A stretch of 64,000 bases of DNA from an uncultured Planctomycetales bacterium. GTDB taxonomy: Bacteria > Omnitrophota > Gorgyraeia > Zapsychrales > Fredricksoniimonadaceae. This document shows, one piece after another, positions 2,678-54,905 of the stretch (position 1 is the stretch's first letter; every line of letters begins with the position of its first letter). The stretch lies in the NCBI GenBank assembly GCA_964583975.1, contig CAZOXU010000004.1, forward strand, positions 70,100 through 134,099, written 5' to 3'. Under the pieces are notes generated by a model that saw nothing but the letters and a program-made list of their open reading frames with translations, searched no databases and was not told the DNA's origin. The position numbers and the translations under genes were made by a program.

Positions 2678-2694
2678 GACTGTGCGCAGTTGAC

Positions 2695-4068: not shown

Positions 4069-4093
4069 AAAAAACCTTTCTAATTTTAAATTC

Positions 4094-4513
4094 TTATTTT
4101 TTAACCTGAGTAGCGAGAATTAAATGCTTAATGCCAACTCTGGACGCTGTATCAACAACCTGGACGACAAAATCATATTTAACACTTCGATCCCCGCTAA
4201 TAATAATCGATGGATCTTTATATTTCTTAGCCAATGATTGCAATTTGAATTTAAAAAGATTCATATCTAAACGTAAACTATAACGCTGATTCTCTAGATA
4301 GACATCTCCGCTAGCTGTGATAGTCACGTTAATATCCTTGTTCTCCATAGGACCCTCATTATGAGAAACCTGAGGTAAGGCAATTTTAATGCTAGAACGA
4401 TAAATAAACGGGGTTGTTACCATGAAGATAATTAAAAGCACCAAAATAACATCCGTAAAAGGAGCTATGTTGATGTCAGCAATCAATTTAGAATTTCTTT
4501 CTCGTCGTTTCAT
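4094..4513 (-). CDS. exbD: Biopolymer transport protein ExbD/TolR
   Basis: A single N-terminal TM helix and ExbD-like periplasmic domain are present. The start overlaps the upstream ExbB/TolQ gene by 4 nt. Confidence 0.8.
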   Translation of the reverse strand: MKRRERNSKLIADINIAPFTDVILVLLIIFMVTTPFIYRSSIKIALPQVSHNEGPMENKDINVTITASGDVYLENQRYSLRLDMNLFKFKLQSLAKKYKDPSIIISGDRSVKYDFVVQVVDTASRVGIKHLILATQVKK

Positions 4514-5142: not shown

Positions 5143-5191
5143 TTGCGCCTCCCTTAATTCATAATCTCATTTAAATTTTAGGAAGATTGTA

Positions 5192-5248
5192 ATGTATTTT
5201 CATTTGCACGTCAAAATCTTTATGGTAATATATGGGCTATTTATTTAG
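5192..5248 (+). CDS. Upstream ORF/leader-like peptide (18 aa, MYFHLHVKIFMVIYGLFI) preceding ilvB
   Basis: AGGAAG lies 6 nt upstream of the ATG. The TAG stop is embedded in the ilvB Shine-Dalgarno sequence (TTTAGGAGGATTTATG). Seven of 18 residues are Ile/Val/Leu. Confidence 0.3.
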   Translation: MYFHLHVKIFMVIYGLFI

Positions 5249-5256
5249 GAGGATTT

Positions 5257-6996: not shown

Positions 6997-7013
6997 TTAA
7001 GAATAGAGTCCCT

Positions 7014-7511
7014 ATGAATAAACCTAATACTCATACAATCAGCGTTTTAGTGGCTAACAAACCAGGTGTGTTAGTGCGTATCGCATTGGTCTTTGCACGC
7101 CGAGCTTACAATATTGATTCTCTAGTGGTTTCTCCTACCGTAAATCCTAAATACTCCCGTATGACGATAACAGCTCAAGGAGATCCCGTGACTCTGGATC
7201 AAATTATTAAAAATGTGGATAAATTAGTAGATGTTATTCATTGCAGTGAACATGATCTGACTCATTCTATCGAAAAAGAATTGGCCTTATTTAAAATTAA
7301 AGCTTCTGCTTCAGCCAAAACATTCCTCTCTAAGAACAGCCGTAAATTCCATGTAAAAGTGGATGATTCTACCGAAGGCATTCTTGTGATTGAACAAACT
7401 GGAACAACCTCTGAGCTTGATGAGTTTGAAACCTTACTAAAAAAGTATGATTTGATAGAAATGGTTCGTACTGGTAAGGTACTGATGGCTAAGGGGAAGG
7501 AATCGACTTAG
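7014..7511 (+). CDS. ilvH: Acetolactate synthase small (regulatory) subunit, ACT domain
   Basis: An N-terminal ACT domain (ISVLVANKPGVLVRIALVFARRAYNIDSL) is present, and the gene lies immediately downstream of ilvB. Confidence 0.85.
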   Translation: MNKPNTHTISVLVANKPGVLVRIALVFARRAYNIDSLVVSPTVNPKYSRMTITAQGDPVTLDQIIKNVDKLVDVIHCSEHDLTHSIEKELALFKIKASASAKTFLSKNSRKFHVKVDDSTEGILVIEQTGTTSELDEFETLLKKYDLIEMVRTGKVLMAKGKEST

Positions 7512-7914
7512 CACTCGAGCAAGAAACGATCTTGGGTAATTCTGCAGGTGGCAGCACAATTAAGGCAACCTCAATAGCATCTAAGGAGTGTTGAATAGAA
7601 GTAATTTTGCAACGCTCTGCATCATAAGCCCCCTCTTTTCCTAGATACTGCGAAATAGCTGCTTTCAAAGCCGCTAATTCCAAATACATAATAAACTGAC
7701 GTTCTTGATCTTCATTCAACCCTAAAACTGAAACCAGCATTGGGAAATCAAGATCAAGGATTTCATCTAAAGATTTATTCTTCAAAAATGCTGATAAGCC
7801 TGTATTAGCAGTAATCTCACTAGAACAAGTCACCTTAGCAAATTCAAACCCCAAAAATTTCTCCTGGGCATCTAAACGAAAATTAAGTCCTGAGGAACTA
7901 TCGGAACAAGGCAT
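7489..7914 (-). CDS. IscU/NifU-like domain protein with degenerate cluster ligands (N-terminally truncated relative to IscU)
   Basis: The sequence aligns to the IscU core (PCSD ~ PACGD; KNKSLDEIL...LKAAISQY ~ KGKSLEEA...IKAAIADY). The GCGS and HCS cysteine positions are replaced (TCSS, QFIMY). An in-frame stop lies 2 codons upstream of the ATG. Confidence 0.4.
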   Translation of the reverse strand: MPCSDSSSGLNFRLDAQEKFLGFEFAKVTCSSEITANTGLSAFLKNKSLDEILDLDFPMLVSVLGLNEDQERQFIMYLELAALKAAISQYLGKEGAYDAERCKITSIQHSLDAIEVALIVLPPAELPKIVSCSSAKSIPSP

Positions 7915-7959
7915 GTCTCAAAAGTAACATGAAAAATAGGTATTGGCAAGACTTCTATA

Positions 7960-9825
7960 CTAACGCAAGATATTGTTTAAGACATTGTTGATAAGTTTTT
8001 TGGAAGATTCTTCTTGAGTAGTCTGAGGATCCGAAGTGTTGGATTGAGGCATTTCTGATTGACTTTCCTTGCCTCCTCCTAAAACAGCATTTAAAATATT
8101 CTTAACCTCAGGATTTTTATCTAAAACTTTCTCTAACTGATTAACACCTTCGGCCACAGCAACTTTACGGGTTATATAATCGACATGGGGTCTGTACTGA
8201 ATGGCTGGCACCTTACCTGAAACTTTACCAGGAATATATAAACGATTTTGCCCATCTAACATACCTTGCAATTGCCTTACAGACTTAACTAAATCCTCAG
8301 AGACATCAGGGGCTAAATAAGCATCAACAGCAATACTTGTTACTAAATTAAAATCTACAGTTCCCTTAGCAGCTACAGAAAAGAGTTGTGATTCAACCTG
8401 GGCATCATTAATAGAAACCACCTTATTAAGCACATTGATATTAGATTGAACCTTATCTAAAACAGTCGTCTCACTCGAAAGTTTGGCTTTAACTTTCTCG
8501 GATAAATTAGATTCGATCTGGTTCGAAAGGCCAGGAATGAAACTCAATTTATCCAAAATGGTTTTAAAAAGATTAAATTTCTCAATCTTCGCCCCTGTCA
8601 GAGCTATACGTCCATTACCTTTAAGATTATTCATCATTAATTCCGGCTCAAAACCTTCGCCTGTACCTGTAAAATCCACCGCTATGAGCCCCAATAATTG
8701 AGCGGGCCAGGCGGTTTCATCCAATAAATCTTGTATCTTTAAAGCCTTTGTCTGCAATTGAAAATCATATTTAGGTACGGCCAATAAAGATTTTACTTGG
8801 GCTTTCAAATCTATTTCTCCTGTTCCTACCTGCGCATGAAAATTCTTGACCAATAAATTATTCAAATCAGCATTGGCCTGAATATTTATGTGATCCACCG
8901 CATTGAGAAGCTCTTTAAACTTAAGATAACCCTCATTTAACGTTATATCGATAGATAAACCTTCTAAACCTTTCGAAGAAACATTAACTGTTGGCGCATT
9001 AACAACAATATTACCTTTAATCTCTTGAGGCCACATAGGAATGTTCTTGAACGCTGGCGTAACAGTCTTTAATTTATTCCAATCCCATTGGCTAAGATCT
9101 GTCTTAATTTGAAAACTTGTGACATCAGCACCTAATCGATTTAAATCCAAATTACAACCACCGGTCATATGAATATTAGTTTCTTTTTTGCTCCAAAGAT
9201 TAATATCAATCACAAAATCAAAAGCATCACTTAAGGAGAAATTATTAATTCTTGCTTGAATATCTTCAATAATCACCTTGATCGGCATCTTTGGATTCTG
9301 ATCTTCAAAAGACAGGCTAGCATGTTCTACAGAAATTAATTTAACCTTTACAACCGGAAGATCTATCTTATCTTTCTGCACAGGCTCTGATACGGCAGGT
9401 GCTTGAGTTACGCCTTCTTGAGGCGATGCTACAGAAGAAATAGTCTCGTTTTTATTTTGTATAGAGGAGTTTTGAATCACAGAAATCTTGGGAGATACTA
9501 CAATCACATCAACAACACGGATTTCTTTGTGCAATAAAGGCAAAAGTTCCAAATGTAGTTTAACTAAACCTACGGCTAAACGCAGATCTTGCGAAGCTTC
9601 CCCTAGACTCACATCTTTTAATTTTAAAGATAGGCCTTTGAAAAGATTAAGATCCAAATCAGCATGGCTGATTTGCACCTTACGTTTGGCCACTTGACTT
9701 ATTTGTTGTGTAATTGTTGGTAGGTACTTATTAACATCGAAAGTTTTAATAAAAATATAAAGCCCTAAAGCACCGACAAGAATTAAACCCAGAATTGAGA
9801 ATACAACAATCTTTAGAATTTTCAT
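7960..9825 (-). CDS. AsmA family outer-membrane assembly protein
   Basis: An N-terminal TM anchor is followed by an AsmA-type N-terminal region (...QISHADLDLNLFKGLSLKLKDVSL) and a long beta-rich periplasmic body. Confidence 0.75.
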   Translation of the reverse strand: MKILKIVVFSILGLILVGALGLYIFIKTFDVNKYLPTITQQISQVAKRKVQISHADLDLNLFKGLSLKLKDVSLGEASQDLRLAVGLVKLHLELLPLLHKEIRVVDVIVVSPKISVIQNSSIQNKNETISSVASPQEGVTQAPAVSEPVQKDKIDLPVVKVKLISVEHASLSFEDQNPKMPIKVIIEDIQARINNFSLSDAFDFVIDINLWSKKETNIHMTGGCNLDLNRLGADVTSFQIKTDLSQWDWNKLKTVTPAFKNIPMWPQEIKGNIVVNAPTVNVSSKGLEGLSIDITLNEGYLKFKELLNAVDHINIQANADLNNLLVKNFHAQVGTGEIDLKAQVKSLLAVPKYDFQLQTKALKIQDLLDETAWPAQLLGLIAVDFTGTGEGFEPELMMNNLKGNGRIALTGAKIEKFNLFKTILDKLSFIPGLSNQIESNLSEKVKAKLSSETTVLDKVQSNINVLNKVVSINDAQVESQLFSVAAKGTVDFNLVTSIAVDAYLAPDVSEDLVKSVRQLQGMLDGQNRLYIPGKVSGKVPAIQYRPHVDYITRKVAVAEGVNQLEKVLDKNPEVKNILNAVLGGGKESQSEMPQSNTSDPQTTQEESSKKLINNVLNNILR

Positions 9826-9834
9826 GAAAATTAA

Positions 9835-10107
9835 TCACCTATTTCTTTGATCCCTTAGTCTTTGCATTTGATCTTTAAGACGTTCATTGAGCTCTCTAAC
9901 ATCTTCCTTTGTATCTCTTATTTTCTCAGAATCCATCATTCTATCCCGCCTTAAATCCTTCATTGTGCCTTTATAAGTATCTTCATTTTCACTGACACCT
10001 GATGATTTAAAAAACATCCCAAACCAAGAACCTTCACCTTGGGCCAGTTTACCAAAAATAGCAGCCAAAAGAGCAACTATAAATATACCTATAAATATAA
10101 TACGCAC
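9835..10107 (-). CDS. Hypothetical small membrane protein with charged coiled-coil tail
   Basis: It has an N-terminal hydrophobic helix and an R/D/E-rich C-terminus. It abuts asmA with a 9-nt gap in the same operon. Confidence 0.4.
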   Translation of the reverse strand: MRIIFIGIFIVALLAAIFGKLAQGEGSWFGMFFKSSGVSENEDTYKGTMKDLRRDRMMDSEKIRDTKEDVRELNERLKDQMQRLRDQRNR

Positions 10108-10122
10108 AAAACCTCCTGTTTA

Positions 10123-12162
10123 TTACAGCAACTGTTTCTCTAATATCTCTAGACTCTCTGTAGGTTGCTGACAGACATTGCCTTGACAAACATATGCCTT
10201 ACTTTTTCCTTTAGATAAATGAAACATTATCGATTTATTAGGAATATAGTGTTTATACACTACTCTTTTCATTTGATCAAGCCTTGAATCGTTAATAGAG
10301 CCTTCCAATGTAATATTTAAAGTAGGTCCATAATAAAAATCCAACATAGATAAAATAAAGGTATAGGCTGAAGGGCTTTTTTCAATCAAAGAAGAGAATA
10401 TTTTCATAATACCTTCAAAAGATTTAATCCATCGAGGGTCAGAATCAATGTGATGCAATCTCATCACAACAGCAGCTGCTACTGAATTTCCTGAAGGAAT
10501 AGCTCCATCGTAAATATCTTTAGGATTCGCAATAAGCTTCTTTGAATCTTGAGGCGTCAAATAAAATCCTCCTTTTTCTGTATCCTCAAACAAGTCGAGC
10601 ATTCGCTTAGCCAAGCCTTTTGCATGGTTTAAATATTTCTCATCAAAACTTGCTTCATAAAGATCTAGCAAGCCATTGATCAAAAATGCATAATCATCAA
10701 GCATACCTTCAATCCCTGCCTCGCTCTCGCGCCAGCGATGGTAAAGCTTATCTGAGGATTGTAGATGATTGAGAATAAAATCCGCAGCTTTTCGAGCGAC
10801 TGTTATGTAGGATGCTTCATTAAGAACACAACCTGCTAGCGCGAAAGCCCCTATCATTAAACCATTCCAGTCGGTTAAAATTTTATCATCAAGATGAGGA
10901 CGCACCCGCGTATTACGCAGATCAAAAAGCTGTTGCTTAGCCTTCTCTAACATTTGCTCTATGGAAAGAGGATCTTGATTAAACTCTTGAGATGCTTCTT
11001 CGATCGTATGAGCTTGGTATAAAATATTCTTATTTATAAACTCCCCGTGAGGATCAGAACGAGCATTCCCTTGAGGCTTGACTCCATAAACATAGTTAAA
11101 AATCTTGGCAGTCTCTTGACCCAAAACCTGCTTAATCTCATCTTCTGACCAAATGTAAAATGCCCCTTCACTTTTATGATCTGACCCTGCAACCAAACTA
11201 TCAGCATCTTCGGCGCTATAAAACCCTCCCTGAGCATCTTGCATATCCCTTACAACATAATCCAAAGTATTTTTAGCAATCCAAGCGTATTCTTTATTAC
11301 CTGTTACCTGATACGCTTCTAAGTAAGCTTTAATCAATAAAGCCTGATCATAAAGCATTTTCTCAAAATGTGGAACGTGCCAATAAGCATCCGTAGAATA
11401 ACGATGAAAACCGCCACCTATCAAATCATTAATACCACCCCTGGACATGGCCATCAAACTAGCTTCAGCCATGGCTAAAGAACCTTGATCTTTGTAACGT
11501 TGATGACATCGTAATAAAAATGATATTTGATGACCCATAGGAAATTTAGGAGCACTACCAAATCCCCCATTATTACGATCAAACTGCATGGATATCTGTT
11601 GCTGTGTTCTTTGCAATAATCCAACATCAGGCACTTGGGATGCCACCACTGCTTTTTGGGCTTGCTCATTTAATAATTGTGTAATTTGATCACTTGAAGA
11701 AAGAATATTCTCTCTTTGCTGTTCCCATCCTTGGGCTACGGAATTAAGTACATCAACAAAGCCCGGTGAACCCCATTTAGCATACGGAGGAAAATATGTT
11801 CCTGCATAAAAAGGCTTAGCCTCAGGGGTCAGAAAAACAGTCATTGGCCATCCACCCTGACCTGTCAACATAGTCGTCACAGACATATAAATATGATCCA
11901 AGTCAGGTCGCTCTTCTCTGTCTACTTTGATTGCTACAAAATGTTGGTTAATAATTTTAGCAATATCGACATCTTCAAAACTTTCATGGGCCATGACATG
12001 ACACCAGTGACAAGTCGAATACCCTATGGAAAGTAAAACAGGCTTTTGTTGGGTTTTAGCTTTCTGAAAAGCTTCTTCACCCCATGGATACCAATCTACA
12101 GGATTATTCAGATGCTGAAGCAGATAGGGGCTTTTTTGGCCAACTAGGTGATTAGAAGACAT
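10123..12162 (-). CDS. Thioredoxin-domain protein of the YyaL/DUF255 family (N-terminal thioredoxin fold plus six-hairpin glycosidase-like domain)
   Basis: The N-terminal motif is typical of this family ([47 protein letters not shown]). Confidence 0.85.
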
Positions 12163-15100
12163 CTATTTAGAGGTGGAATCAAACAGGTCCAAAGTTTTTG
12201 CTACTTGGTCTTTTCGATCAGGCGTTGAAACCTTCGAAGAATCTACAGCCGTAGAAGATAAATTCTTTTTCATAACTAAAGAATTTTGAGCTAATTGATC
12301 AATCTTGACCTTTAATTTATTCAAATAGTCATCTGTCTTTTTATAATTAGGCATTAAATCTGCAACATCAGAGAATTTTTGGGCTGCGGCTGGATAATGA
12401 CCAGATTTATAAAGTTTAACAGCCTGGGCATACATATCCTCAACACCATTGGCCAGCTGTTGACGAATTGCTTTTCGTTCATTTTCAAGATTTTGTTGAC
12501 GCTCTTTGACTACCTTTGCCATTTCAATGCGTTCTTTTTCATGTTGTTCAACTAATTTATCAGACTTCATACGCTCTAAACGTTGTTTTTCTTTTTCCTC
12601 GGCTTCTTGCCGTCTGCGTTCCATTTCCTTAAGACGTTCTTGCTCTTTTTGTTTGCGTAACTCTTCAAATCGCTTATCTTCTTTTTCTCTTTGTTCTTCT
12701 AATTCTTTCCTAATCTTTTCTTGCTCTTGCTCTTTTTGCTTATTTAATTCTTCCAAATGTTTATTTTCTTTCTCTTTTTGTTCTTCCAAGGCTTGTTTTT
12801 GTTTTGCCTTTTCCTCTTCTTTTTGTTTACGTAAATCTTCTATTCTTTTATGCTCTTGCTCTTTTTTCTCTTCAATAGCTTGACGACGCTTAGCTCGTTC
12901 TTCTTCTTTTTGTTTACGTAAATCTTCAATCCTCTTACGTTCTGCTTCTTTTTTTTCTTGTGCAGTTTGTTTTTGTTTCTCTTTTTCCTGCTCTTTTTGT
13001 TTTTGTAAATCTTCTTTAGGAGGTTCTATAGGAGTAGGCTTTACTAATGGGGTTTCTTGAGTTAAAGGATTCTCAGGAATATGTTTTATATTAACTTTCG
13101 GATCAACCTGAGCAGCAGCACGTTCCTGCTGAGCTTGCTCTTCTGAGACAGGCTTTACCTTCCTAAAATGATATACTTGATCTTTTTGACGGGCTTGTTC
13201 TTCAGCCTGACGGCGTTTATTTTCGATACGTTGATGTCGTCTTTCTTCCAATCTCAAAGATTCGGACCTACGACGTTCTTCTTGTTGCTGTTGCTCTAAC
13301 AAAAGCCGTTGTCTTTCTAACCCTTGGGTTAAATTTCTTTGCCGTTGTTGTTCTTTGACCCCCAGAACATCAGAAAGGCGTTGCTGGCGTAATCTTTCAG
13401 CCAAATAATTCTTACGTTCACGCTCATCTTCCTTCTTGGCCTTTACAAAGCTTTCTTCGATAAGTCGATCGATCTTTCGTAAATATCCTAATGCTCTATC
13501 GTCACCTTGAGAGGCTAACTCTCCAAATATAATCTTTGCTTGATCATATTTCTTAGAATCATACAAATCAACAGCTTGTTGAAAAACACGTTCTTTTTGC
13601 TGTCTTAATTCCTTATCTTTGGAAGCTTGAACTTGCTTATCCATGATAGATTTTTGTTTTTGACGCTCTTTAATAACTTTGGCACTGTCATCGATAGTCC
13701 TGGCCTGTGAGCGTTTTTCATTTAAAATTTTCTGAGCTTCTTGTTTAATAATTCTTTGTTCATCTTTTTGGGAGTTTAACAAGGCTTCTTGTCCCCGCTC
13801 ATGAGCAAGCTTTTCTTTAACAACCTTTAAATCACTCAAAATACTCTCAAGATCTTTAAATTTATCTTTAGCAGCAAGATAGTTCTTAGCTTTTGTTAAG
13901 TTTAAAATTTCATCATTAACATTTGTTGCTTGCTGGGCCAAACTCATCAAGCGCTCTTGCAATTGGGCAATTCGTTCTTTTTTCTGATTCTCTTGTTGTT
14001 CTCTAAGTTTTCTTTCTTCCTCAATAGCTCTTTCTTTCTTAGCATCTTCTTCAACCCTTCGCTGATCTTCATCAATATGGGCCAAATAATTCGAGGTAGA
14101 CTTATACCCTGGTTGATTATTTTCTATCTCCAAAAATCTCTTTTTAGCTCCTTGAAAATCTTTATTCTTTAACATATTTAATGCTTCTTCATATGTTTGC
14201 TGAAGATACCCTAACCTTACTCTTTCTTTTTCTTTTAAGGCCTCTTGTTGACGACGACGTTCTTCTTCTTTAATTTGTCGCAAAACGTATTCTTTTTCCT
14301 TACGTAAATTATTTAAAATACCATCAACCTTAGCTAATTTGTTTTTGGCTGCAATGGTATCTTTATCATCGGCTAAGGTAGTGATTTCTTGATATAATTT
14401 TGAAGATTTTTCTGCTAATTCGCTTAAAAGCTGCGCTTCATTTATTTGTTCTTCTCTAGATAAATTTGACTGTATTGGTGTCGCTGCAACAACCTCTGCA
14501 GGTTTAGGCTGAGGCTCAGCCTTATGTTGCTCTAATTGTTTTTGTTTGGACAATACTTCTTGTCTTTGAACTTCTTCTTGGCGCCTTTTGACCTCTTGTT
14601 CACGTTTCTGCTGTTGCTCCAATGCTTTTTGTTTTTCCCGTTCTTCGGCTTTCTTTTGTAATTCTTCTTTTCTTTTAGATTCTTCATCTTTTTTGCGTTG
14701 CAACTCAGCAGCTTTCTTTTGAGCTAGTTCTTCTTGCTTTTTAACTATTTCTTGCCGTCTCTTGGCTTCTTGCTCTTGTTTTTGTTGGCGCTCTAAAGCT
14801 TTTTGCTTTTCTCGTTCTTCAGCTTGTTTTTGCTTTTCTTCATTTAACTTCTTTGCTTCTTCTTGTTTACGTTGCTGATCTTGCTCGCGTTGTTTAACCA
14901 ATTCTTCGCTTTTCTTTTGAAGTGCTTCATCGCGGTCTATTCTTTCTAAATAATAATTAACCGATTTGTAGCCTGTTAACTGGCGATCCACTGATTGAAA
15001 TTTTTCGCGAGCTTGAACGTATTGCTTATCCTTAAATAAACTTAATGCCATACTATAGTCCGCCTCGACTCTAGCTAAAAATTCCTTTTTTTCTTGCTGT

Positions 15101-16377
15101 TGTTTACGGATTTCTTCTTGTTTTTGAACTTCAAATTGTTTTCTTCGTTCAAAATCAGCCTGTCGCTGTTGACGTTTTAATTCTTCGGTGCGAAGCCTAG
15201 ATTCAAAAGCTTCTCTTTCGGCAATCTGTTGGTCAATGGCATTAAGAAAGGTATGCGTCAACCTATAATTATCTGCCACTTTCTCAAGATTAAGAAACTC
15301 ATCTCTTGCTTCGGCATATTTCTTCTGACGGAATAACGCTAGGGCTTTTTTGTAGATTTCTTCAGCGGAAGGATTGTCTTGTTTTAAAACAGTTATATTT
15401 TCTTGATTCTGCGCTTCATCTAATTTAATTTTGCGTTCTAATTCCTGCTGGATTTTAGCATCTTGCTGTTGTTGAAAGGCTAATTTCTGTTCTCTATCAG
15501 CCTTTTCTTCTTTGAGTTGACGCTCCAAAGCCTTTTGGTTCTCTATATCTTGTATTTTTTGAGATCGTTCTTGTTGCTTTTGTAAGTCTTCTTGTTGTTT
15601 TCTAAATTGTTCTTCCTGCTTGTTTATATCCTCTTGTTGCTTCTTTCTTGCTTCTTGTTGGGCACGCTCTTGTTCTAACTGCTTTTTTAAAGCTAAATTT
15701 TCTTCTCTGAGCTGCTCTTGCTTTTGGAGCATTTTTTGCTTTTCTAACATCTGGGCTTCTTGAGCAAGGGCTTTATCAATAAGAACAAAATAATTAGAGG
15801 TGGATTTGTAATCGCCCACCAAATCTTCTATGTTTTTAAATAATTCTCTGGATTCAACAAATTTTCTTGCTTTATATAGTTCAACGGCTTTTTGATATTT
15901 TTTGTCTAATTCCTTTTGAAGGCCTTTCTGAATATTTTGTTCTTCAATTTGCTGTCTCTCTTTTTCTTTCTTTAAAGCAAGCTCTTGCTTTCTTAATCGT
16001 TCTTGAGATTTCTTGATGTTTTCCAGTAATTCGGAGCGTTCGGAAATACTAACAGCCTTATCAAAATAATATCGAGCTTGATCAAACTTTCCTTGGTCAG
16101 CCAAACGCAACCCCATATCGTAATATTCGTTAGCACGATCTTCTCTTATTTCCTGCTTTTTAGCCATTGAATCAGCCCTGATCTTATCATTTAGTTTTTT
16201 GATATTATCTTTGGATTCATTGATAAGACTTTTTAAAGTTTCTTGATAAGTGCTGCTGGGAGGTTCTTCGTAATCCGAACCATCTAACTGGTCAGAAGTT
16301 GCATCATAAGTAATAACAAAAGAAGAAGAAATAAATATTAGTGAAGTGATTAAAAAAAGTGGAAGAATTTTTCGCAT
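12163..16377 (-). CDS. Very large (1404 aa) secreted K/E/Q/R-rich coiled-coil protein with about 8 dispersed TPR-like 45-aa modules
   Basis: A signal peptide is present. The module (Y..A..L(Y/F)..KKY..A...F..........YK.T..YL..ID) recurs, separated by long charged heptad-like linkers. It abuts the yyaL gene with a 0-nt gap. Confidence 0.7.
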   Translation of the reverse strand: MRKILPLFLITSLIFISSSFVITYDATSDQLDGSDYEEPPSSTYQETLKSLINESKDNIKKLNDKIRADSMAKKQEIREDRANEYYDMGLRLADQGKFDQARYYFDKAVSISERSELLENIKKSQERLRKQELALKKEKERQQIEEQNIQKGLQKELDKKYQKAVELYKARKFVESRELFKNIEDLVGDYKSTSNYFVLIDKALAQEAQMLEKQKMLQKQEQLREENLALKKQLEQERAQQEARKKQQEDINKQEEQFRKQQEDLQKQQERSQKIQDIENQKALERQLKEEKADREQKLAFQQQQDAKIQQELERKIKLDEAQNQENITVLKQDNPSAEEIYKKALALFRQKKYAEARDEFLNLEKVADNYRLTHTFLNAIDQQIAEREAFESRLRTEELKRQQRQADFERRKQFEVQKQEEIRKQQQEKKEFLARVEADYSMALSLFKDKQYVQAREKFQSVDRQLTGYKSVNYYLERIDRDEALQKKSEELVKQREQDQQRKQEEAKKLNEEKQKQAEEREKQKALERQQKQEQEAKRRQEIVKKQEELAQKKAAELQRKKDEESKRKEELQKKAEEREKQKALEQQQKREQEVKRRQEEVQRQEVLSKQKQLEQHKAEPQPKPAEVVAATPIQSNLSREEQINEAQLLSELAEKSSKLYQEITTLADDKDTIAAKNKLAKVDGILNNLRKEKEYVLRQIKEEERRRQQEALKEKERVRLGYLQQTYEEALNMLKNKDFQGAKKRFLEIENNQPGYKSTSNYLAHIDEDQRRVEEDAKKERAIEEERKLREQQENQKKERIAQLQERLMSLAQQATNVNDEILNLTKAKNYLAAKDKFKDLESILSDLKVVKEKLAHERGQEALLNSQKDEQRIIKQEAQKILNEKRSQARTIDDSAKVIKERQKQKSIMDKQVQASKDKELRQQKERVFQQAVDLYDSKKYDQAKIIFGELASQGDDRALGYLRKIDRLIEESFVKAKKEDERERKNYLAERLRQQRLSDVLGVKEQQRQRNLTQGLERQRLLLEQQQQEERRRSESLRLEERRHQRIENKRRQAEEQARQKDQVYHFRKVKPVSEEQAQQERAAAQVDPKVNIKHIPENPLTQETPLVKPTPIEPPKEDLQKQKEQEKEKQKQTAQEKKEAERKRIEDLRKQKEEERAKRRQAIEEKKEQEHKRIEDLRKQKEEEKAKQKQALEEQKEKENKHLEELNKQKEQEQEKIRKELEEQREKEDKRFEELRKQKEQERLKEMERRRQEAEEKEKQRLERMKSDKLVEQHEKERIEMAKVVKERQQNLENERKAIRQQLANGVEDMYAQAVKLYKSGHYPAAAQKFSDVADLMPNYKKTDDYLNKLKVKIDQLAQNSLVMKKNLSSTAVDSSKVSTPDRKDQVAKTLDLFDSTSK
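12816..12960. repeat. Direct tandem DNA repeat (~88-nt period, 2+ copies) inside the coiled-coil gene
   Basis: An identical 25-mer (cttctttttgtttacgtaaatcttc) occurs at 12816 and 12904, with similar flanks. It encodes repeated ...RKQKEEE(R/K)AK... segments. Confidence 0.7.
14586..14860. repeat. Direct DNA repeat (~180-nt period, 2 copies, ~75% identical) inside the coiled-coil gene
   Basis: The segment 14610-14665 resembles 14790-14845. It encodes duplicated EEREKQKALE(R/Q)QQK(Q/R)EQE(A/V)KRRQE blocks. Confidence 0.6.
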
Positions 16378-47657: not shown

Positions 47658-48113
47658 CTATTTTTTCTTCTTAGCAACTGTCTTTTTCTTAACCGTTGTC
47701 TTTTTAGCCGCAGATTTCTTCATGTCAGTTTTCTTGGCAACTTTGGCAGGCGCTGGAGCTGGCACGGTCTGAGAAACAACGGGTTTTATAGAGGTATCAA
47801 CTTTAGGCGTTTGACCGCCTCTTCGACGCGCGAAACATTCTTTGCAATATACCGGACGATCTGCCGTTGGCTTAAAAGGAATCGAGCACGCTTTCTTGCA
47901 GTCTGCGCAGATCACTTGAAAAAGATTCTTGGAAGGCTGTTGAAAAACAGGTTTATGGACAACAGGTGTCTGGGGCGCTGGCCTGGATGATTGTCCACTA
48001 TTAGAAAGTTTATTTAAAATCATATCCACTTTACGATTTAAAGAATTTAACTGTTCTTGGATCTTAGAAATGGAAATTAATGTGTCGGATGGTTTTAATG
48101 TTTGTTGGTCCAT
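47658..48113 (-). CDS. CxxC-x17-CxxC zinc-ribbon protein with N-terminal coiled coil and Lys-rich tail
   Basis: The zinc ribbon is ICADCKKACSIPFKPTADRPVYCKECF. The C-terminus is KKTTVKKKTVAKKKK. Confidence 0.55.
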   Translation of the reverse strand: MDQQTLKPSDTLISISKIQEQLNSLNRKVDMILNKLSNSGQSSRPAPQTPVVHKPVFQQPSKNLFQVICADCKKACSIPFKPTADRPVYCKECFARRRGGQTPKVDTSIKPVVSQTVPAPAPAKVAKKTDMKKSAAKKTTVKKKTVAKKKK

Positions 48114-48123
48114 AGTCTCCTTT

Positions 48124-48714
48124 TTAAGTGTTCAAATGAAGATGCATTGCCACATGACGCTGTAAATCTAAAACGCCAATTTTTTTAAATGAGCTTACCC
48201 AGAAAACTTCTCTATCACCCACCCCAAGAGCCTTTAAGATCTCGTCTTTTCTTGTCTCGAGCTTCGGGACAGCAATCTTATCAATCTTATGCACAACAAA
48301 ACTATACACAAAGCCAGAATGTTGAAGCCAGTCAATCATCATCCGATCGAGATTGGTTGGGCCAGCTACCGCATCAACAACCACATAGATCATCTGAAGA
48401 CTTTGCCTGTCTTTAAGATAGCTTTCAACGATGCCGCCTAACTCGTCTTGTGCTTTGGGACCACCGACCGCAAAACCATAACCCGGAAGATCCACAAGCC
48501 AACGGCCAGCAGATACTTCATAAATATTGATGGTGCGTGTCTTGCCGGGCATTTGAGAGACCTGCGCCATATTCTTTTTTTGGCACAGCGTATTGATAAG
48601 GGTACTTTTCCCTACATTCGAACGTCCCAGAAAGCAAACTTCAGCCTTGCTTCGTTCAATCCTTTGGACCTCAACTTCGGTTTTAAAATACTTTGTGTTG
48701 TGTAAAAAATTCAT
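48124..48714 (-). CDS. engB: Ribosome biogenesis GTP-binding protein EngB (YihA/YsxC)
   Basis: The G1 motif GRSNVGKSTLIN and the DLPGYGFA motif are present. Confidence 0.85.
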   Translation of the reverse strand: MNFLHNTKYFKTEVEVQRIERSKAEVCFLGRSNVGKSTLINTLCQKKNMAQVSQMPGKTRTINIYEVSAGRWLVDLPGYGFAVGGPKAQDELGGIVESYLKDRQSLQMIYVVVDAVAGPTNLDRMMIDWLQHSGFVYSFVVHKIDKIAVPKLETRKDEILKALGVGDREVFWVSSFKKIGVLDLQRHVAMHLHLNT

Positions 48715-48773
48715 CGCTCCATCCTACTGTCCCTCTAACGTATGGTCAATGAATTACTCCAAGATAAAATAAT

Positions 48774-48798
48774 AAAGCCCATCTTTTGGATGGGCTTT
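48774..48798 (-). terminator. Rho-independent terminator downstream of the OLD-family ATPase gene
   Basis: The stem aaagcccatc/gatgggcttt with a 5-nt loop is flanked by A/T runs on both sides, so it may act bidirectionally. Confidence 0.6.
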
Positions 48799-48904
48799 AT
48801 TATTCATATTGGCTCCCCCTAGGAGACGAGTTTATGAACTTTCTAGGATCAATTGATCATCAAATATTGATGGCTTTAATTAATGCAACCAATACCAAAA
48901 CCAT

Positions 48905-50806
48905 TTAACTTATCTTCTTAGAAACATGTAAATGAACTGGATCTAAAAGTTCTTTAAATTCAACCGTGTTAAGATATTGACTTATAGGCTGCTTATTTGC
49001 TAACGCTTCATAGATGATTTTAATAACTCCCTGTTCCTTGCTTTCAACGCCTTTTAGTAATTGCTTGGCAGAATCCAGATAGAAACCTTCCAATTCATCA
49101 GAAAGAATGAACAAGCGTGCGCTAGATCTCAATTCATTTAAAAGAACTCTCACTTCGGGCGCTAACTTTTTATCAATCTGATTTATATTCTTATATTTAC
49201 CTGAAATGTTAATCTTTGATTTCAAAGAATTAACGGAATCCTTGAGTTCTTTCTTAAATTCTAAACTTGTAAGATACTCTGATAAACCTTCTCTTAGAAA
49301 ATCAAAATCACTTAAAACGCAATGAGGGATTGACACTTCTTTTAACTTTTTCGCATACTTCCAGAATTCCATCTTACCGCCACAATTAATAATTGAAATA
49401 TTATATTCATCTAACCAACCTTCTCCCCACCCTTTCTCAACACCACACTCCTTTGCAATTTCTTCCAAAATATACTTATCTCCCCCTTCAACTAAAATAA
49501 CAAGATCAGCAAAAAACATCTCAGTATTCTGTGATTTTAACAATATTTGTCTTTCTTTAACTTCTGAAAAACTAGTATTAGTTGCTACCGTTCCTTTGTT
49601 GAGATCTTTTCGAACAACAATAACATTAAGATTATTCTTTGTAGTCGCAATAAATTCTGAAGAATGTGTAGTAAGAATAACTTGATTTTTACCCTCATCC
49701 AGAAAATGGTCCAATCGCTCTGATATGACTCTTCGCCCATGTGGATGTAAATATAACTCTGGTTCTTCAATTGCCAACAAGGAACTCCCCCCAGAATTAT
49801 CAACTTCTTTAGTATAAAAATCAAAAAGGCCGATTATAACAGCACTTTGAAGCCCAGCCCCTTTATCTTGTAATTGACTATTAAACCCATCATCAACATA
49901 TATCAAAGCACTCTTATATATATCTTGCTTTTTATCTGGATTTAATTGAATGGAAATTTTAGTATTAGGGAAAGCAACTTGCACCTTACTATTATTAATT
50001 TTAGTTTCTAAATTCTTAAAAACTTCTGTAGATGCTTTCTTTACTTCGTTAAATGCAGTTTGTAACTTCGTATTTCCAGAATCAATTGTTTTTCTTAACA
50101 ACTTACCATACCAACTGTAATTACTAATACGTAGTTGTGCTTGTGGATCCCTAAAAGACGGGATTATTGCACTTTTAATTAATTCATTTCTAATTGTTGC
50201 TTTAAAAGCAAGAACCCAAGAAGAAGAAACATTCTCTCTATATAAGAATCTAATATCTTTTTTAATCCCTTTATCTGTCTTTTGAGCCAAAAAACAATAC
50301 GCAAAATGATACTTATCTTCAAGTTGGCTTTTAAAAGTTGTTTGATTCCATAATTTTGGATTTATATATTCAGAATCATAATTAATATTTTCTTCATCAA
50401 AATTAAAAAGAGCTATTAAATCATCAGGGATTTTATTAACCGAATGTCTTATTGCTTCTCTAGTTTTTGGCTTCTTATTCTCCCATTCTGTTACCTTGGA
50501 ATGAATTTTATAACCATAACAAGTATGAATTTCTTCATAATTTAGTTTTTCATGAACAGATCTTGTAAGTTCAGCAAAAATCAATAATCGTTTTGACTGG
50601 TCACCATTATAGAAATCATTATCTGTAATATTTTCAAATTTTTCATAAGTTGGGGTACTATCACCTAAAATTAAATCAATTGCCTTTAAAATATTACTCT
50701 TCCCAGAATTATTTCTACCAACAATTACATTCTTGCCCTGAGTAAATTTTAAATCCAACTCTTTAATCGAACGGTAATTCTGGATATAAACCCTTGATAA
50801 ATACAT
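48905..50806 (-). CDS. OLD-family ABC-type ATPase with C-terminal Toprim nuclease domain (GajA-like architecture)
   Basis: The ATPase motifs are Walker A (VIVGRNNSGKSNILKAI), signature-like (KGAGLQS), Walker B (LLAIEEPELYLHP) and H-loop (TTHS). The C-terminal Toprim has ILVEGGDKY and ...LSDFD. The product is 633 aa. Confidence 0.8.
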   Translation of the reverse strand: MYLSRVYIQNYRSIKELDLKFTQGKNVIVGRNNSGKSNILKAIDLILGDSTPTYEKFENITDNDFYNGDQSKRLLIFAELTRSVHEKLNYEEIHTCYGYKIHSKVTEWENKKPKTREAIRHSVNKIPDDLIALFNFDEENINYDSEYINPKLWNQTTFKSQLEDKYHFAYCFLAQKTDKGIKKDIRFLYRENVSSSWVLAFKATIRNELIKSAIIPSFRDPQAQLRISNYSWYGKLLRKTIDSGNTKLQTAFNEVKKASTEVFKNLETKINNSKVQVAFPNTKISIQLNPDKKQDIYKSALIYVDDGFNSQLQDKGAGLQSAVIIGLFDFYTKEVDNSGGSSLLAIEEPELYLHPHGRRVISERLDHFLDEGKNQVILTTHSSEFIATTKNNLNVIVVRKDLNKGTVATNTSFSEVKERQILLKSQNTEMFFADLVILVEGGDKYILEEIAKECGVEKGWGEGWLDEYNISIINCGGKMEFWKYAKKLKEVSIPHCVLSDFDFLREGLSEYLTSLEFKKELKDSVNSLKSKINISGKYKNINQIDKKLAPEVRVLLNELRSSARLFILSDELEGFYLDSAKQLLKGVESKEQGVIKIIYEALANKQPISQYLNTVEFKELLDPVHLHVSKKIS

Positions 50807-50808
50807 TT

Positions 50809-51744
50809 CTAACCTTTCAGATTTATAAAACGCTCATAAACCTGTCTTAGTAAAAATACAGCATAATCAACGTCTTTAATATTCGATAAGAAATAATCGC
50901 TAATATGTTGATTGTAATACTCGAAACTCTTTTCTCTGTAGATAACTTTATTCTCAGGATCTTTTAAATCTTTTGGCTGAGTTCTTCCAAACCATAAAAT
51001 AATCTTAGATTTTTGAATATGAACTCCACACATCACAGAATTATCTATTTTAAACCCCACATAAGCTCTTTGAGGACTTTCATAAAGCCTACTATCTAAC
51101 TCTAGTATTCTATCTCTTAACTTTTGATAAACTTCTTTTGTAATGGGCCAATTAGATTTGAAATGATCTTCAACCGAATATTTTTTGACCTCCTTAGCAA
51201 CCTTTTCTAAAGAAGAACCCAATTTAGATACAGTCTTAATCGACTCAGCACCATCAAAAGAAACCAGTTCATTTAGAGACACCGATCCATCCTCATATTT
51301 CTTGATCTCCCATAACTCCATAGGAAGATCTTTAAAATTTGTTGCTTGTCTCTGATAATTAGTAAAAGAAGGCGAAACGAATATGACTCTGGACTGCGTC
51401 CAATCAACCTGATCTTTCTTAAGATGATTCTTTTGACGCTCGTTATATTCCAAAATAAAATCGGCTTTATTATTCAAAAGCAAAGCTAAATATGCAAACC
51501 CTTGATCAATTACTGAAAAGTTCTTATTTTGCTTATATTCAATAATAACGAAAGATTTCGTCTCCAGATCAAAAGCTAGTGTATCAACCCGTAAGCCATG
51601 AAGTTGGAACTCAGAACGCACATACTCAAGCCCAAAGAACAGCTCTACATTACTTTCAATCAAATCTTTGATCTCATTCTCTGAAAGAAAGGGTTTTTCG
51701 GAAAGTTTCTTTATCTTACTTTTATCAAAAACATAGTGAGCCAT
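50809..51744 (-). CDS. NucS/DUF91-like PD-(D/E)xK nuclease-fold protein with uncharacterised C-terminal domain
   Basis: The N-terminal segment ENEIKDLIESNVELFFGLEYVRSEFQLHGLRVDTLAFDLETKSFVIIEYKQNKNFSVIDQGFAYL follows the NucS-type pattern (E..L..G...R.....G.ID.LA.D..G..VVIELK......V.GQ...Y). The stop lies 2 nt from the ATPase start. Confidence 0.6.
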   Translation of the reverse strand: MAHYVFDKSKIKKLSEKPFLSENEIKDLIESNVELFFGLEYVRSEFQLHGLRVDTLAFDLETKSFVIIEYKQNKNFSVIDQGFAYLALLLNNKADFILEYNERQKNHLKKDQVDWTQSRVIFVSPSFTNYQRQATNFKDLPMELWEIKKYEDGSVSLNELVSFDGAESIKTVSKLGSSLEKVAKEVKKYSVEDHFKSNWPITKEVYQKLRDRILELDSRLYESPQRAYVGFKIDNSVMCGVHIQKSKIILWFGRTQPKDLKDPENKVIYREKSFEYYNQHISDYFLSNIKDVDYAVFLLRQVYERFINLKG

Positions 51745-52005
51745 TAAAACCTCCTTTTGGATGATTTAGCATATCATAAAGGTTACAATTTAGGATGGTT
51801 TTTAGCCCTACAGTATTTCTTTCCTAACGTAACGTTCGTTGATATACTTTCCGCATGGGAAAAGCCAAAGAAAACCAATACAAAACGAGTAACGAAGCCC
51901 TCGAAGCTTCTATTTCAAGGGGAAGATGAAGAACGTTTCTAAATATCCCTATACACTGCAATGGTTTCCGACAGAACTTTACCCATTCTCCTCATTTCTT
52001 TTTAT

Positions 52006-52326
52006 TTAATGTAAATCATTATTAACTACAACGGCTCTCTCACCATTCAAAAAAATACTCTTCCCATCTAAATGATTGTCAGCAATGTAACTATACTTAC
52101 CGTTATCTAAAATTCCCCTAGGGTCATTAGAGCTACTCTGACCTTTATTTTCTTGAACCTGCTCCTCCTTGAATGTTGCAAATTGTTCACCTTTTTTTCC
52201 AGAAAAACCTTTAATCCACCCCACAATTCCCATTAAAGAAGCAACAAGAATTATTATAATGAAACCATTCTTAGGATTTCTTTTAAAATCTTTAAACATT
52301 TTCTTAAATTCTGCATAAGACCACAT
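52006..52326 (-). CDS. Hypothetical small single-pass membrane protein
   Basis: It is 106 aa with one TM helix (GFIIIILVASLMGIVGWI) and lies inside the AT-rich island between the defence-like pair and tRNA-Asn. Confidence 0.4.
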   Translation of the reverse strand: MWSYAEFKKMFKDFKRNPKNGFIIIILVASLMGIVGWIKGFSGKKGEQFATFKEEQVQENKGQSSSNDPRGILDNGKYSYIADNHLDGKSIFLNGERAVVVNNDLH

Positions 52327-52483
52327 AATACCCCCCTTATGTTTGCTAATACCATAATTGGATTAATAGTACTTAACCAAAATTCCTTGTCAAACAATTT
52401 GAATTCCTAACCATTTAAGAATACAAGACCGGTTGACATCTAATAATAATTTAGTATAATTCTCGCCTAGTCAAAAGTCTTAT

Positions 52484-52557
52484 TCCCCTGTAGCTCAGTT
52501 AGGTAGAGCAGCGCGCTGTTAACGCGCTTGTCCGAGGTTCGAGCCCTCGCGGGGGAG
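52484..52557 (+). tRNA. tRNA-Asn (anticodon GTT)
   Basis: A cloverleaf is present. The acceptor is TCCCCTG/CGGGGGA with one G.U pair. The D-arm is TAGCTCAGTTAGGTAGAGCA. The anticodon stem GCGCG/CGCGC carries the loop CTGTTAA. The T-arm is GGTTCGAGCCC. CCA is not encoded. Confidence 0.85.
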
Positions 52558-52567
52558 TTTATATAAC

Positions 52568-52607
52568 AAAAAACCCTATTCTTGTAATTTAAGAATAGGG
52601 TTTTTTT
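52568..52607. terminator. Bidirectional rho-independent terminator between tRNA-Asn and recR
   Basis: The stem ccctattctt/aagaataggg with a 7-nt loop has an A6 run on one side and a T7 run on the other. Confidence 0.7.
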
Positions 52608-52635
52608 GTTGCTTCCAATTTTTCTTAAGACTCTC

Positions 52636-53229
52636 TTAAAACTCTCTGCGGGAATTCAGCGACATAGTAAGCGTAGACAAATCCACGTACTCAACCGCTG
52701 ATCCAACAGGAATCCCTAGGCCAATACGACTAACCTTAACCCCTGTTGGTTTAAGTATCTTTCCTAAATACAAGGCTGTGATCTCACCTTCGGTATCTGG
52801 GTCGGTTGCAATCACCACTTCTAAAATTCCTTCTTCCCCAATCCTGCTTAATAATTTACCCACATTTAAATCTTCCGGACCACGCCCTTCAGTCGGAGAA
52901 ATATTGCCCAAAAGCACATAATAAACACCTTTAAAGCTGCCGGTGCGTTCAATCGCCAAAAGATCCTTAGGACTTTCCACAACACAGATCATCTTACGAT
53001 CACGACCTGGATCTGAACACACCAAACAAAGCTCATGCTCAGTTAAATGATTACATTGTTTGCAAAAGCGCAAACCTTCTTTTAATTGGATAATCGAGTC
53101 AGCCAAGGCTTTAACATCCTCAGTTTTCTGAGCCAACATCCAATAGACAATGCGTTCCGCACTTCGGCGTCCCACACCAGGCAATTTGCTTAAATTCTCT
53201 AATAAATTTTCGATTAATTTAGGATACAT
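52636..53229 (-). CDS. recR: Recombination protein RecR
   Basis: HhH (LPGVGRRSAERI), C4 zinc finger (CKQCNHLTEHELCLVC) and Toprim domains are present. Confidence 0.9.
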   Translation of the reverse strand: MYPKLIENLLENLSKLPGVGRRSAERIVYWMLAQKTEDVKALADSIIQLKEGLRFCKQCNHLTEHELCLVCSDPGRDRKMICVVESPKDLLAIERTGSFKGVYYVLLGNISPTEGRGPEDLNVGKLLSRIGEEGILEVVIATDPDTEGEITALYLGKILKPTGVKVSRIGLGIPVGSAVEYVDLSTLTMSLNSRREF

Positions 53230-53282
53230 AATATATGTGTACGGGCTGGGTTACCCAGCCCACTACGAAGCAGGATTTCCTC

Positions 53283-54905
53283 TTATTCGTTATGCCACTC
53301 TTTAACCACCTTGCCACCAAAAAGATTCAAGGCATCTTCTACAATGGGTTGAGATTCTTTAGGAATGGATTCATCGATGGATTTAAAAACAAGATGAATG
53401 GATTGTCCTAACTTCTCTGTAAAAATCTTTTCAACGATCGATTGATTGTCTTTCATCGATAATGTCTCTTTGCCAAAACGGTGTTCTTTTAAGAAACCTA
53501 AGGTCAAAAACCCATCCTTAAACGCACTGGGATTAGCCTCTTGCAAATAAGTAGCCAAAGACATTTTTCGACGCGACACCTCATGGGTCAAAGAATTCCA
53601 ATTTTGTTGAATAAAATCCAAGGATACCCCGCCTGCTGTATCTAATTTCTCTACCTTGATGGCTGGCTCGCTCACAGCAGCTTTGACCGCAGGTTTCGCT
53701 GCAGACACCGCTGGTTTGGCCACAGGCACAGCCACTGAAGCTGCTACAGATGATATCGCTGCTTTGGGCGCCGCGGCAGCTGCTGCGGGTGCTGTGCCGC
53801 TTGTCCCCGCAGAAGGTTGACTCAAAATAATCTTGGCCAAGGCCAGCTCCAAAGGCATACGCATGGTTTCCATAATTCTGGATGTCTCCTGCGCCTCGAT
53901 AAACAACTCAATGGCCTTTAAAATTCCTGCTATAGAAATCCTTTGAGCCTGGCTCGATAAGCGTTCCTTAACATTCTTAGGGTAATCGATGAGATTGTTG
54001 AGCGCAGGCCCACCAATCTTGGCAATCATCATATGACGAAAATGTTCAGTCAAATCTTTGCAAAGCTGCTTTAAATCTTTACCTGCCTCGATAATCTGGT
54101 TTAAAACCGTCATGGCCTTAGGCGCATCGCGATCCACCAGGGCATCGGTCAATTCAAAAAGGTATTCCATCTCCACAATGCCTAGCATGGAAAACACATC
54201 GGACGATTCAACACCCTTTTGTCCTAAAGCACTTAGCTGATCGAGAATCCCTAAAGCATCGCGCATACTGCCACCCGCGGCCTTAGCAATGGCAAAAAGG
54301 GCTTCATCGGCGATTTTAATCGATTCTTGTTTGCTGATTTCTTTTAAGTTATTGCTGATTGTTTCTAAAGGTATGCGTTTAAAATCAAAACGCTGGCAAC
54401 GTGAAAGAATAGTTGCTGGGACCTTATTGGCTTCGGTCGTTGCAAAAATAAAGATCACATGTTCAGGAGGTTCTTCTAAGGTCTTTAAAAGCGCATTAAA
54501 GGCTTCCGCTGTCAGCATGTGGACTTCATCGACAATGTAAATCTTATAACGGCCATAGCTTGGTGCAAATTTAACATTCTCACGTAAGGCGCGGATTTCA
54601 TCAATACCACGGTTGGAAGCTCCATCGATTTCAATCACATCAAAGCTGTTGCCCTTGGCAATTTCCTGGCAGGCAAAACATTCACCACAAGGTTTAAGTG
54701 TAGGCCCATTTTGGCAATTTAAAGATTTAGCTAGAATACGCGCGCTCGAGGTCTTTCCAATTCCACGCGGACCACAAAACAAAAAGGCATGAGCAATGCG
54801 CTTGGTCTCTACGGATTGTTTGAGGATCTTGATGATATGGTCTTGGCCCTGAAGTTCATCAAAGCTTTGAGGACGGTATTTGCGGGCTAAAACGAGATAC
54901 GACAT
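53283..54905 (-). CDS. dnaX: DNA polymerase III subunit gamma/tau
   Basis: The AAA+ clamp-loader Walker A (GPRGIGKTS) and a zinc module (C..C..C) are present. The Ala/Pro-rich linker matches tau. Confidence 0.9.
   Translation of the reverse strand: MSYLVLARKYRPQSFDELQGQDHIIKILKQSVETKRIAHAFLFCGPRGIGKTSSARILAKSLNCQNGPTLKPCGECFACQEIAKGNSFDVIEIDGASNRGIDEIRALRENVKFAPSYGRYKIYIVDEVHMLTAEAFNALLKTLEEPPEHVIFIFATTEANKVPATILSRCQRFDFKRIPLETISNNLKEISKQESIKIADEALFAIAKAAGGSMRDALGILDQLSALGQKGVESSDVFSMLGIVEMEYLFELTDALVDRDAPKAMTVLNQIIEAGKDLKQLCKDLTEHFRHMMIAKIGGPALNNLIDYPKNVKERLSSQAQRISIAGILKAIELFIEAQETSRIMETMRMPLELALAKIILSQPSAGTSGTAPAAAAAAPKAAISSVAASVAVPVAKPAVSAAKPAVKAAVSEPAIKVEKLDTAGGVSLDFIQQNWNSLTHEVSRRKMSLATYLQEANPSAFKDGFLTLGFLKEHRFGKETLSMKDNQSIVEKIFTEKLGQSIHLVFKSIDESIPKESQPIVEDALNLFGGKVVKEWHNE

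Follow-up and report, generated by a model that had tools for sequence, protein, structure and literature searches.

The window analysed here is a 64-kb stretch of DNA from contig CAZOXU010000004.1 that contains, between engB and a tRNA-Asn gene, a segment of ~3.8 kb that is low in G+C (GC) content and carries two adjacent minus-strand genes. The upstream gene of this pair (50809..51744) codes for a 311-amino-acid (aa) protein of the PDC-S18 family, as defined by its open reading frame (ORF), PADLOC and Pfam matches and an AlphaFold2 (AF2) model, and the downstream gene (48905..50806) codes for a 633-aa nuclease of the OLD family, as defined by its ORF and by Pfam and PADLOC matches. These genes had originally been predicted to form an undescribed two-gene anti-phage defence system. 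Our analysis indicates instead, with a probability of roughly 0.7, that the locus is composed of two independent single-gene defence modules that are stacked in a recombination hotspot and that are probably co-transcribed. PDC-S18 is an already catalogued candidate, OLD is of a known kind and there is no conserved pairing between the two, so that an undescribed two-gene system is not supported. What the original prediction did capture is that both genes are members of defence-associated families, with PADLOC models for PDC-S18 and Old recognizing the respective proteins.

The lack of a conserved pairing is evident when the genes are examined from either side. For PDC-S18, we fetched 80 loci from different species that contain homologues with 43-54% identity, and scored the 78 of these in which ORF calling recovered the homologue. 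No OLD gene was detected within ±8 kb of PDC-S18 in any of the 78, using both phmmer with the window OLD and an OLD subfamily profile. For OLD, the sample is composed of ~32 close relatives, namely 25 metagenomic loci whose flanks were usable, together with the loci designated L082, L083, L167 and L189-L192. A PDC-S18 gene is present beside OLD in just one of these ~32 loci (L086), where it is located 9 nt downstream of OLD in an order that is opposite to that in the window. A six-frame profile search for PDC-S18 fragments that may have been cut at the ends of the OLD contigs found none beyond L086. Thus, the co-occurrence with OLD ATPases that was expected for homologues of the 311-aa protein is essentially absent.

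A comparison of closely related loci provides additional evidence that OLD and PDC-S18 are not co-inherited. The L086 OLD forms a tight sub-clade with the OLDs of L089, L090, L093 and L091 (77-94% aa identity). The OLDs of L086 and L091 exhibit 80% aa identity, and the DNA of these two loci is collinear up to the OLD stop codon, after which L086 has an extra ~920 nt (2153-3076 versus L091:8029-8040) that corresponds exactly to the PDC-S18 gene. Collinearity then resumes, with L086 3077-3253 matching L091 8041-8217 at 84% identity, leaving L091 with an intact OLD and an empty PDC-S18 slot. The same slot in L089, L090 and L093 is occupied by a different nuclease, PDC-S11 (L089:8042-9151), which is composed of a NucS-like core plus a DUF4268 domain and is separated from OLD by gaps of 14-21 nt. 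Since the contents of this slot differ among L086, L091 and L089, we conclude that OLD persists without PDC-S18 and that PDC-S18 behaves like a single-gene cassette. Additionally, the window OLD is in a different sub-clade from the L086 OLD, with L082 containing its nearest relative, and the PDC-S18 proteins of the window and L086 are only 40% identical. Consequently, the two adjacencies of OLD and PDC-S18 are independent in origin and do not reflect co-inheritance.

These observations bear directly on the possibility that the pair is a cooperative two-nuclease system that constitutes a new OLD class in which a NucS-like partner replaces the helicase. For example, the PD-(D/E)xK protein could cut foreign DNA with OLD processing the ends, or the partner could be a sensor that licenses OLD. 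Such cooperation would fit the 2-nt spacing of the window genes and their single downstream hairpin, the second adjacency in L086, the occurrence of OLD followed by the NucS-like PDC-S11 in L089, L090 and L093, and the occurrence of OLD followed by Mrr_cat in L082; a NucS-like gene is present in the downstream slot of four of the five loci that make up one OLD sub-clade. However, no scored PDC-S18 locus has an OLD gene, the single exception among the OLD relatives has the opposite gene order, the partners are incongruent (40% versus 52% identity, with OLDs from different sub-clades), L091 has an intact OLD with no partner, and the PDC-S11 proteins of L089, L090 and L093 are 90-94% identical and therefore represent one lineage. 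Chance adjacency is furthermore to be expected, because both families are known to sit in or near restriction-modification (R-M), BREX and Hma loci. We therefore consider a cooperative two-nuclease system to be unlikely.

Several observations nonetheless weigh against treating the two genes as unrelated modules. A 2-nt spacing together with an internal ribosome-binding site is operon-like and is compatible with translational coupling. Beside OLDs of this clade, a stand-alone PD-(D/E)xK nuclease is also found in four lineages that are independent of each other (~33 loci in all), namely the window and L086 (both PDC-S18), L089/L090/L093 (PDC-S11) and L082 (Mrr_cat), although there is no background rate with which this count can be compared, and there may be a mild functional association between OLD and PD-(D/E)xK nucleases. 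The sampled loci are mostly metagenomic fragments with short flanks, and PDC-S18 is listed by PADLOC as a candidate only, which leaves its defence role putative. A related and likewise doubtful proposal is that a slot beside the OLDs of this clade accommodates interchangeable PD-(D/E)xK reader-nucleases (PDC-S18 with DUF5655, PDC-S11 with DUF4268, and Mrr_cat) as partners with which OLD cooperates. The reader-nuclease may then make the first cut, with OLD processing the damage or amplifying it.

The genes that surround the close OLD relatives are mixed and include type III Res, type I S subunits, AbiJ, BrxL, an HmaC/SspC-like protein, a methyltransferase, Mrr_cat, PDC-M24A/B and unknown proteins, with many members of the OLD clade located in R-M, BREX or ietAS islands. 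In well-assembled contigs, OLD is isolated in three of four cases (L190-L192), with gaps of 160-425 nt on either side, and the fourth (L189) has two unannotated genes downstream of OLD. The latter locus (L189:5001-9269) has an Omnitrophota-like context, with dnaX and zf_Tbcl_2 nearby, and contains an OLD with 54% identity that is followed at gaps of 13 nt and 7 nt by a 487-aa and a 260-aa protein, neither of which has a Pfam or PADLOC match and which could be an unrecognised partner pair. Two additional loci (L083:2-3149 and L167:3-3140) code for the nearest OLD relatives (55-59% identity), each of which has, 2-3 nt upstream, a large protein that is cut by the contig end. This upstream protein is weakly HmaC/SspC-like in L083 and has no match in L167. 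The proteins encoded upstream of the nearest OLDs mostly lack Pfam or PADLOC matches, and a conserved upstream partner was rejected given that those of L083 and L167 are unrelated.

The hidden Markov model search that had been suggested as a check identified the 311-aa protein as a single-gene candidate already in PADLOC. Specifically, model PDLC04945 (PDC-S18) matches at an E value of 3e-100 over aa 1-303, which covers model positions 1-301 of 302, so that the protein corresponds end to end to the family presented in the 2024 preprint of Payne et al. The PADLOC PDC set is composed of 145 "guilt-by-embedding" candidates that were recognized by their location within BREX, DISARM and type I R-M systems (bioRxiv 10.1101/2024.01.29.577857). 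The text supplements of this preprint contain no PDC-S18 entry, and a literature search on PDC-S18 and DUF5655 returned nothing informative and no paper that names PDC-S18. The family is large (>6000 clusters at 90% identity), its members typically are ~307 aa long, and it is spread among candidate-phyla-radiation (CPR) bacteria, Bacteroidota, Proteobacteria and some archaea. Homologues are also found on plasmids.

The N-terminal NucS-like PD-(D/E)xK nuclease that was originally predicted for the 311-aa protein is present. This domain extends from about aa 20 to 165 (51250..51687, minus strand) and contains residues D54, E69-x-K71 and Q81 that are invariant across 34 homologues and that constitute the PD-(D/E)xK signature. 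The remainder of the protein, which previously could not be placed, is a DUF5655 domain (about aa 190-311; 50812..51177, minus strand) that scores above the Pfam gathering score. An AF2 model built from the 34-homologue alignment (predicted local distance difference test 87.5; predicted template modelling score 0.78) exhibits a nuclease domain that resembles the NucS/EndoMS repair nuclease at the fold level only, and a C-terminal domain with a YdhG/YjbR/MotA-like alpha/beta "double-wing" fold that presumably is a DNA- or ligand-recognition module. There are no solved structures that are related in sequence to the 311-aa protein.

The position of many PDC-S18 homologues raises the question of whether the 311-aa protein is an accessory or repair factor, such as a NucS-like nuclease that acts on mismatched or branched DNA, or a type I R-M helper, which would leave OLD as the sole defence module. 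Among 138 immediate neighbours of PDC-S18 genes, ~13 are HsdR/ResIII-like and 10 are HsdM, making type I R-M subunits a recurrent neighbour. For example, the closest homologue (59% identity) is located 6 nt 3' of hsdR, and on Acinetobacter plasmids the gene order is hsdM-hsdS-DUF5655-hsdR. We also note a type I R-M operon on the NDM plasmid pNDM_SCLZS30 of A. towneri (L169, record 1399-9970), in which the hsdS-hsdR interval holds three genes that code for an HNH endonuclease, the DUF5655 protein (PDC-S18) and a PD-(D/E)XK nuclease. The R-M-embedded homologues agree with how the PADLOC PDC models arose, and such a frequent location inside type I R-M operons, along with the fold likeness to NucS/EndoMS, could mean that the protein serves the R-M enzyme. 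However, ~65 of the 78 homologue loci have no R-M neighbour, and the window copy is in no R-M, BREX or DISARM system and has an OLD gene as its neighbour instead. The protein also differs from NucS/EndoMS in that it has no NucS N-terminal domain (a Pfam scan gave no NucS_N match), in that its NucS_C match of 20.2 bits is under the Pfam cut-off of 24, and in having another C-terminal domain. Finally, a patchy distribution, a low-GC foreign composition and insertion or deletion as a single gene are typical of mobile defence cargo rather than of housekeeping repair, and the family is found on plasmids as well. An accessory or repair role thus seems improbable.

With PDC-S18 regarded as an independent defence module, its N-terminal NucS-like domain (D54/E69/K71) would cleave DNA and its C-terminal double-wing domain would recognize DNA or another substrate. 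The protein would then be a self-contained restriction-type nuclease, possibly one that is modification-dependent (type IV-like); the window contains no cognate methyltransferase for it. A modification-dependent mode is plausible by analogy to MdgA and MdgB, which are experimentally tested single-gene nucleases with a DUF4268 domain that degrade modified T4 DNA and not T4-GT7 DNA (bioRxiv 10.1101/2025.02.28.640651). Like these proteins and PDC-S11, the 311-aa protein combines an N-terminal PD-(D/E)xK-type nuclease and a C-terminal accessory domain in one polypeptide. It differs from them in having DUF5655 rather than DUF4268, and modification dependence has been shown for MdgA/MdgB only. Alignment between the PDC-S11 and PDC-S18 nuclease cores is weak (E 0.016), with D54/E69/K71 of PDC-S18 corresponding to D63/E77/K79 of PDC-S11. 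This profile comparison aligns the nuclease core alone, and we therefore rejected a common C-terminal domain. The L089 PDC-S11 protein has the motif D63...E77-x-K79, and E77A is the mutation that was used to alter the catalytic site of MdgA, a DUF4268 nuclease (bioRxiv 10.1101/2025.02.28.640651). Because E77 is common to both, MdgA may be a member of the PDC-S11 family, which we offer as a conjecture. The 311-aa protein differs from Shedu SduA as well, as it has no PADLOC Shedu match and another C-terminal domain.

The downstream gene also has the architecture that was originally predicted, namely an OLD-family ABC ATPase with a C-terminal Toprim domain. Pfam identifies AAA_15 (5e-43) over aa 1-386, which defines the ATPase region (49649..50806, minus strand), and OLD-like_TOPRIM (1.4e-14) over aa 431-502, which is a full-profile match that defines the Toprim nuclease domain (49301..49516, minus strand). 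An alignment of 30 sequences with 46-61% identity has an invariant Walker A (G30/G35/K36) and Walker B (E347/E348), as well as invariant Q320/S321, H381 and Toprim residues E440, D500 and D502. The signature motif and H-loop of an ABC-type ATPase are present along with Walker A and Walker B, as are the acidic metal ligands of Toprim. Because the Walker and Toprim residues are invariant, the enzyme is probably active, judging from its sequence. By analogy with studied OLDs, the Toprim domain would be a two-metal nuclease that is controlled by the ABC ATPase and that nicks or degrades phage DNA as it replicates. Vc OLD is a nickase for which both the Walker A and the Toprim residues are required and which blocks replication of the phage genome, and P2 Old and TsOLD provide other precedents for nicking or degrading DNA (PMC10568477; PMC12392090).

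OLD proteins are divided into classes that are defined by genetic context, in which class 1 is a single gene, class 2 has an adjacent GajB helicase (Gabija), class 3 is a retron with a reverse transcriptase as well as noncoding RNA (ncRNA), and class 4 is the split AriA/AriB pair of PARIS (PMC10568477; PMC12392090). Among PADLOC models, the 633-aa protein matches Old best (3e-53), followed by GajA (2e-49), with AriA at 3e-43. Since the Old and GajA models score this closely, sequence alone is not decisive and the class assignment rests on context, by which the 633-aa protein is a class 1 OLD. Like P2 Old, TsOLD (6P74) and Vc OLD, it lacks a helicase, reverse transcriptase or AriB partner, and it has close homologues that occur alone. 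TsOLD, which is a class 1 protein, is the only full-length relative in the Protein Data Bank (1.8e-21 by sequence and 2.6e-26 by profile), even though it is distant (E ~1e-21, with the match mainly in aa 312-525) and differs in length (528 aa versus 633 aa here). Class 1 OLD genes usually are isolated and not close to other candidate defence genes (PMC10568477), and class 1 OLDs are able to defend alone (PMC12392090). The window OLD departs from this isolation in that it is packed 2 nt from the PDC-S18 candidate; isolation is a descriptive trend for class 1 and not a formal criterion.

The GajA and AriA matches could also be taken to mean that OLD is what is left of a Gabija, retron Eco8-type or PARIS system whose partner is located elsewhere or has been lost, and NCBIfam additionally returns weak N-terminal matches to retron Eco8 and PtuA. 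However, these NCBIfam matches are far under cut-off and involve the Walker A region only, and sequence and profile searches of the Protein Data Bank with OLD recovered no GajA or AriA chain. GajA does share the ATPase-Toprim architecture, but there is no gajB 3' of the OLD gene, where a hairpin and then engB are found, and none of the window's large ORFs codes for a UvrD-like helicase, a reverse transcriptase or an R-M protein. This is in agreement with the original prediction, which held that the pair was neither Gabija nor PARIS and had left room for a full Gabija with its helicase elsewhere. An Rfam search over 48000-53300 gave no retron ncRNA at E <= 0.1, and thus no msr/msd match of the kind expected for a class 3 OLD. 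Lastly, Toprim is fused to the ATPase in the 633-aa protein and the neighbouring gene codes for a PD-(D/E)xK protein rather than a Toprim, unlike the separate AriA and AriB genes of PARIS, and close homologues occur alone in well-assembled genomes. Since the window lacks a helicase, a reverse transcriptase, an ncRNA and AriB, and TsOLD is the only solved OLD relative, we rejected a Gabija, retron or PARIS remnant as very improbable. A phage origin of the pair was rejected as well, since both families are uncommon on viral contigs; a search of 2.9 million such contigs gave a single PDC-S18 match, and the best OLD match on viral contigs was 31% identical.

The arrangement of the two genes is as first described, with ORFs of 311 aa and 633 aa on the minus strand separated by 2 nt at the junction TAG-AA-ATG. 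The 311-aa gene has a strong AGGAGG Shine-Dalgarno sequence 5 nt 5' of its ATG, and the OLD gene has a weak AAAGG ribosome-binding site that is located inside the 3' end of the upstream PDC-S18 gene. A terminator that was placed at 48774-48798 in the original prediction does coincide with a hairpin, which was identified from an inverted repeat and its sequence and which extends over 48768..48804 (minus strand) instead. This hairpin has a perfect 16-bp stem and a 5-nt loop, precedes a T-rich tract on the minus strand, and is located upstream of a promoter-like site of engB. From these sequence features it is probably the terminator of the OLD/PDC-S18 pair, a role that we infer because the hairpin was absent from the output of a consensus terminator scan.

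The segment from engB to the tRNA is foreign by composition, and the early observation that it is AT-rich relative to engB, recR and dnaX holds. Its GC content of 0.32 is the minimum of 302 same-size windows (mean 0.386, standard deviation 0.023), and GC content at third codon positions (GC3) is 0.22-0.30 in the island versus 0.37-0.43 for engB, recR and dnaX. The tetranucleotide distance of the island is 0.285 versus 0.176 ± 0.047, a value that is equalled or exceeded by 6 of 151 windows (top ~4%). The right-hand boundary of the island is tRNA-Asn (GTT; 52483..52558, plus strand), which was identified by ARAGORN and by Rfam (tRNA, 62.8 bits).

The host lineage appears to be Candidatus Omnitrophota, for which the names of RecR homologues are the sole basis. 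In relatives, a Tex-epimerase-dnaX-recR block is conserved and the sequence directly past recR is variable. For example, in L170 and L171 (L170:7600-9370) a large serine recombinase gene and NikR/NicO/OprB/FTR1 cargo genes lie beyond tRNA-Asn, and in L172:7600-10700 tRNA-Asn is reduced to its 5' half, after which come a HigB/HTH (helix-turn-helix) toxin-antitoxin pair and a transposase. The recR/tRNA-Asn junction (52483-52636 in the window) is thus a rearrangement hotspot in an Omnitrophota-like lineage. The proposal of a tRNA-adjacent acquired island is therefore correct in regard to its tRNA-Asn neighbour, foreign composition and variable locus, but not as a textbook insertion at a tRNA 3' end. 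The island is located on the 5' side of tRNA-Asn, which is inverted relative to recR in the window, the ORF list contains no integrase or other recombinase gene in the island, and a repeat scan found no flanking direct repeats of the attachment-site (att) type. A classical tRNA-3' integrative island was rejected on these grounds.

The low-GC island also contains a 106-aa ORF (52006..52326, minus strand) with one hydrophobic helix, a GC content of 0.32 and a GC3 of 0.26. It had been described as an orphan small transmembrane protein that follows the pair; it is a near-orphan with a hydrophobic helix, but, with respect to transcription, it is located upstream of the pair. A search of 1.84 billion representative proteins recovered a single real homologue (45% identity), and the ORF is found in none of the related loci. 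We therefore rejected it as a third component of a system. The ORF has its own promoter-like site (TTGACA-16-TACTAT at 52393-52366), and whether it is in an operon with the pair is uncertain. Elsewhere in the window, positions 12001-16000 exhibit an AT skew of -0.26 to -0.43 that is far outside that of the rest of the window, and this strongly negative skew lies over a 1404-aa ORF (12163-16377, minus strand) that contains tetratricopeptide (TPR) repeats.

The main value of this analysis is negative, in that an apparent new OLD-partner system is found to be two catalogued single-gene modules that are stacked, which saves a cloning effort on the wrong hypothesis. Were OLDs of this clade to have an exchangeable partner slot after all, they would constitute a loosely coupled, modular new OLD class. 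The loci L086, L091 and L089 provide a clean natural example of the exchange of single-gene defence cassettes beside OLD. Additionally, PDC-S18, a large uncharacterised family that would function in defence of its hosts, now has a concrete anatomy that is composed of a NucS-like nuclease (D54/E69/K71) and a double-wing domain.

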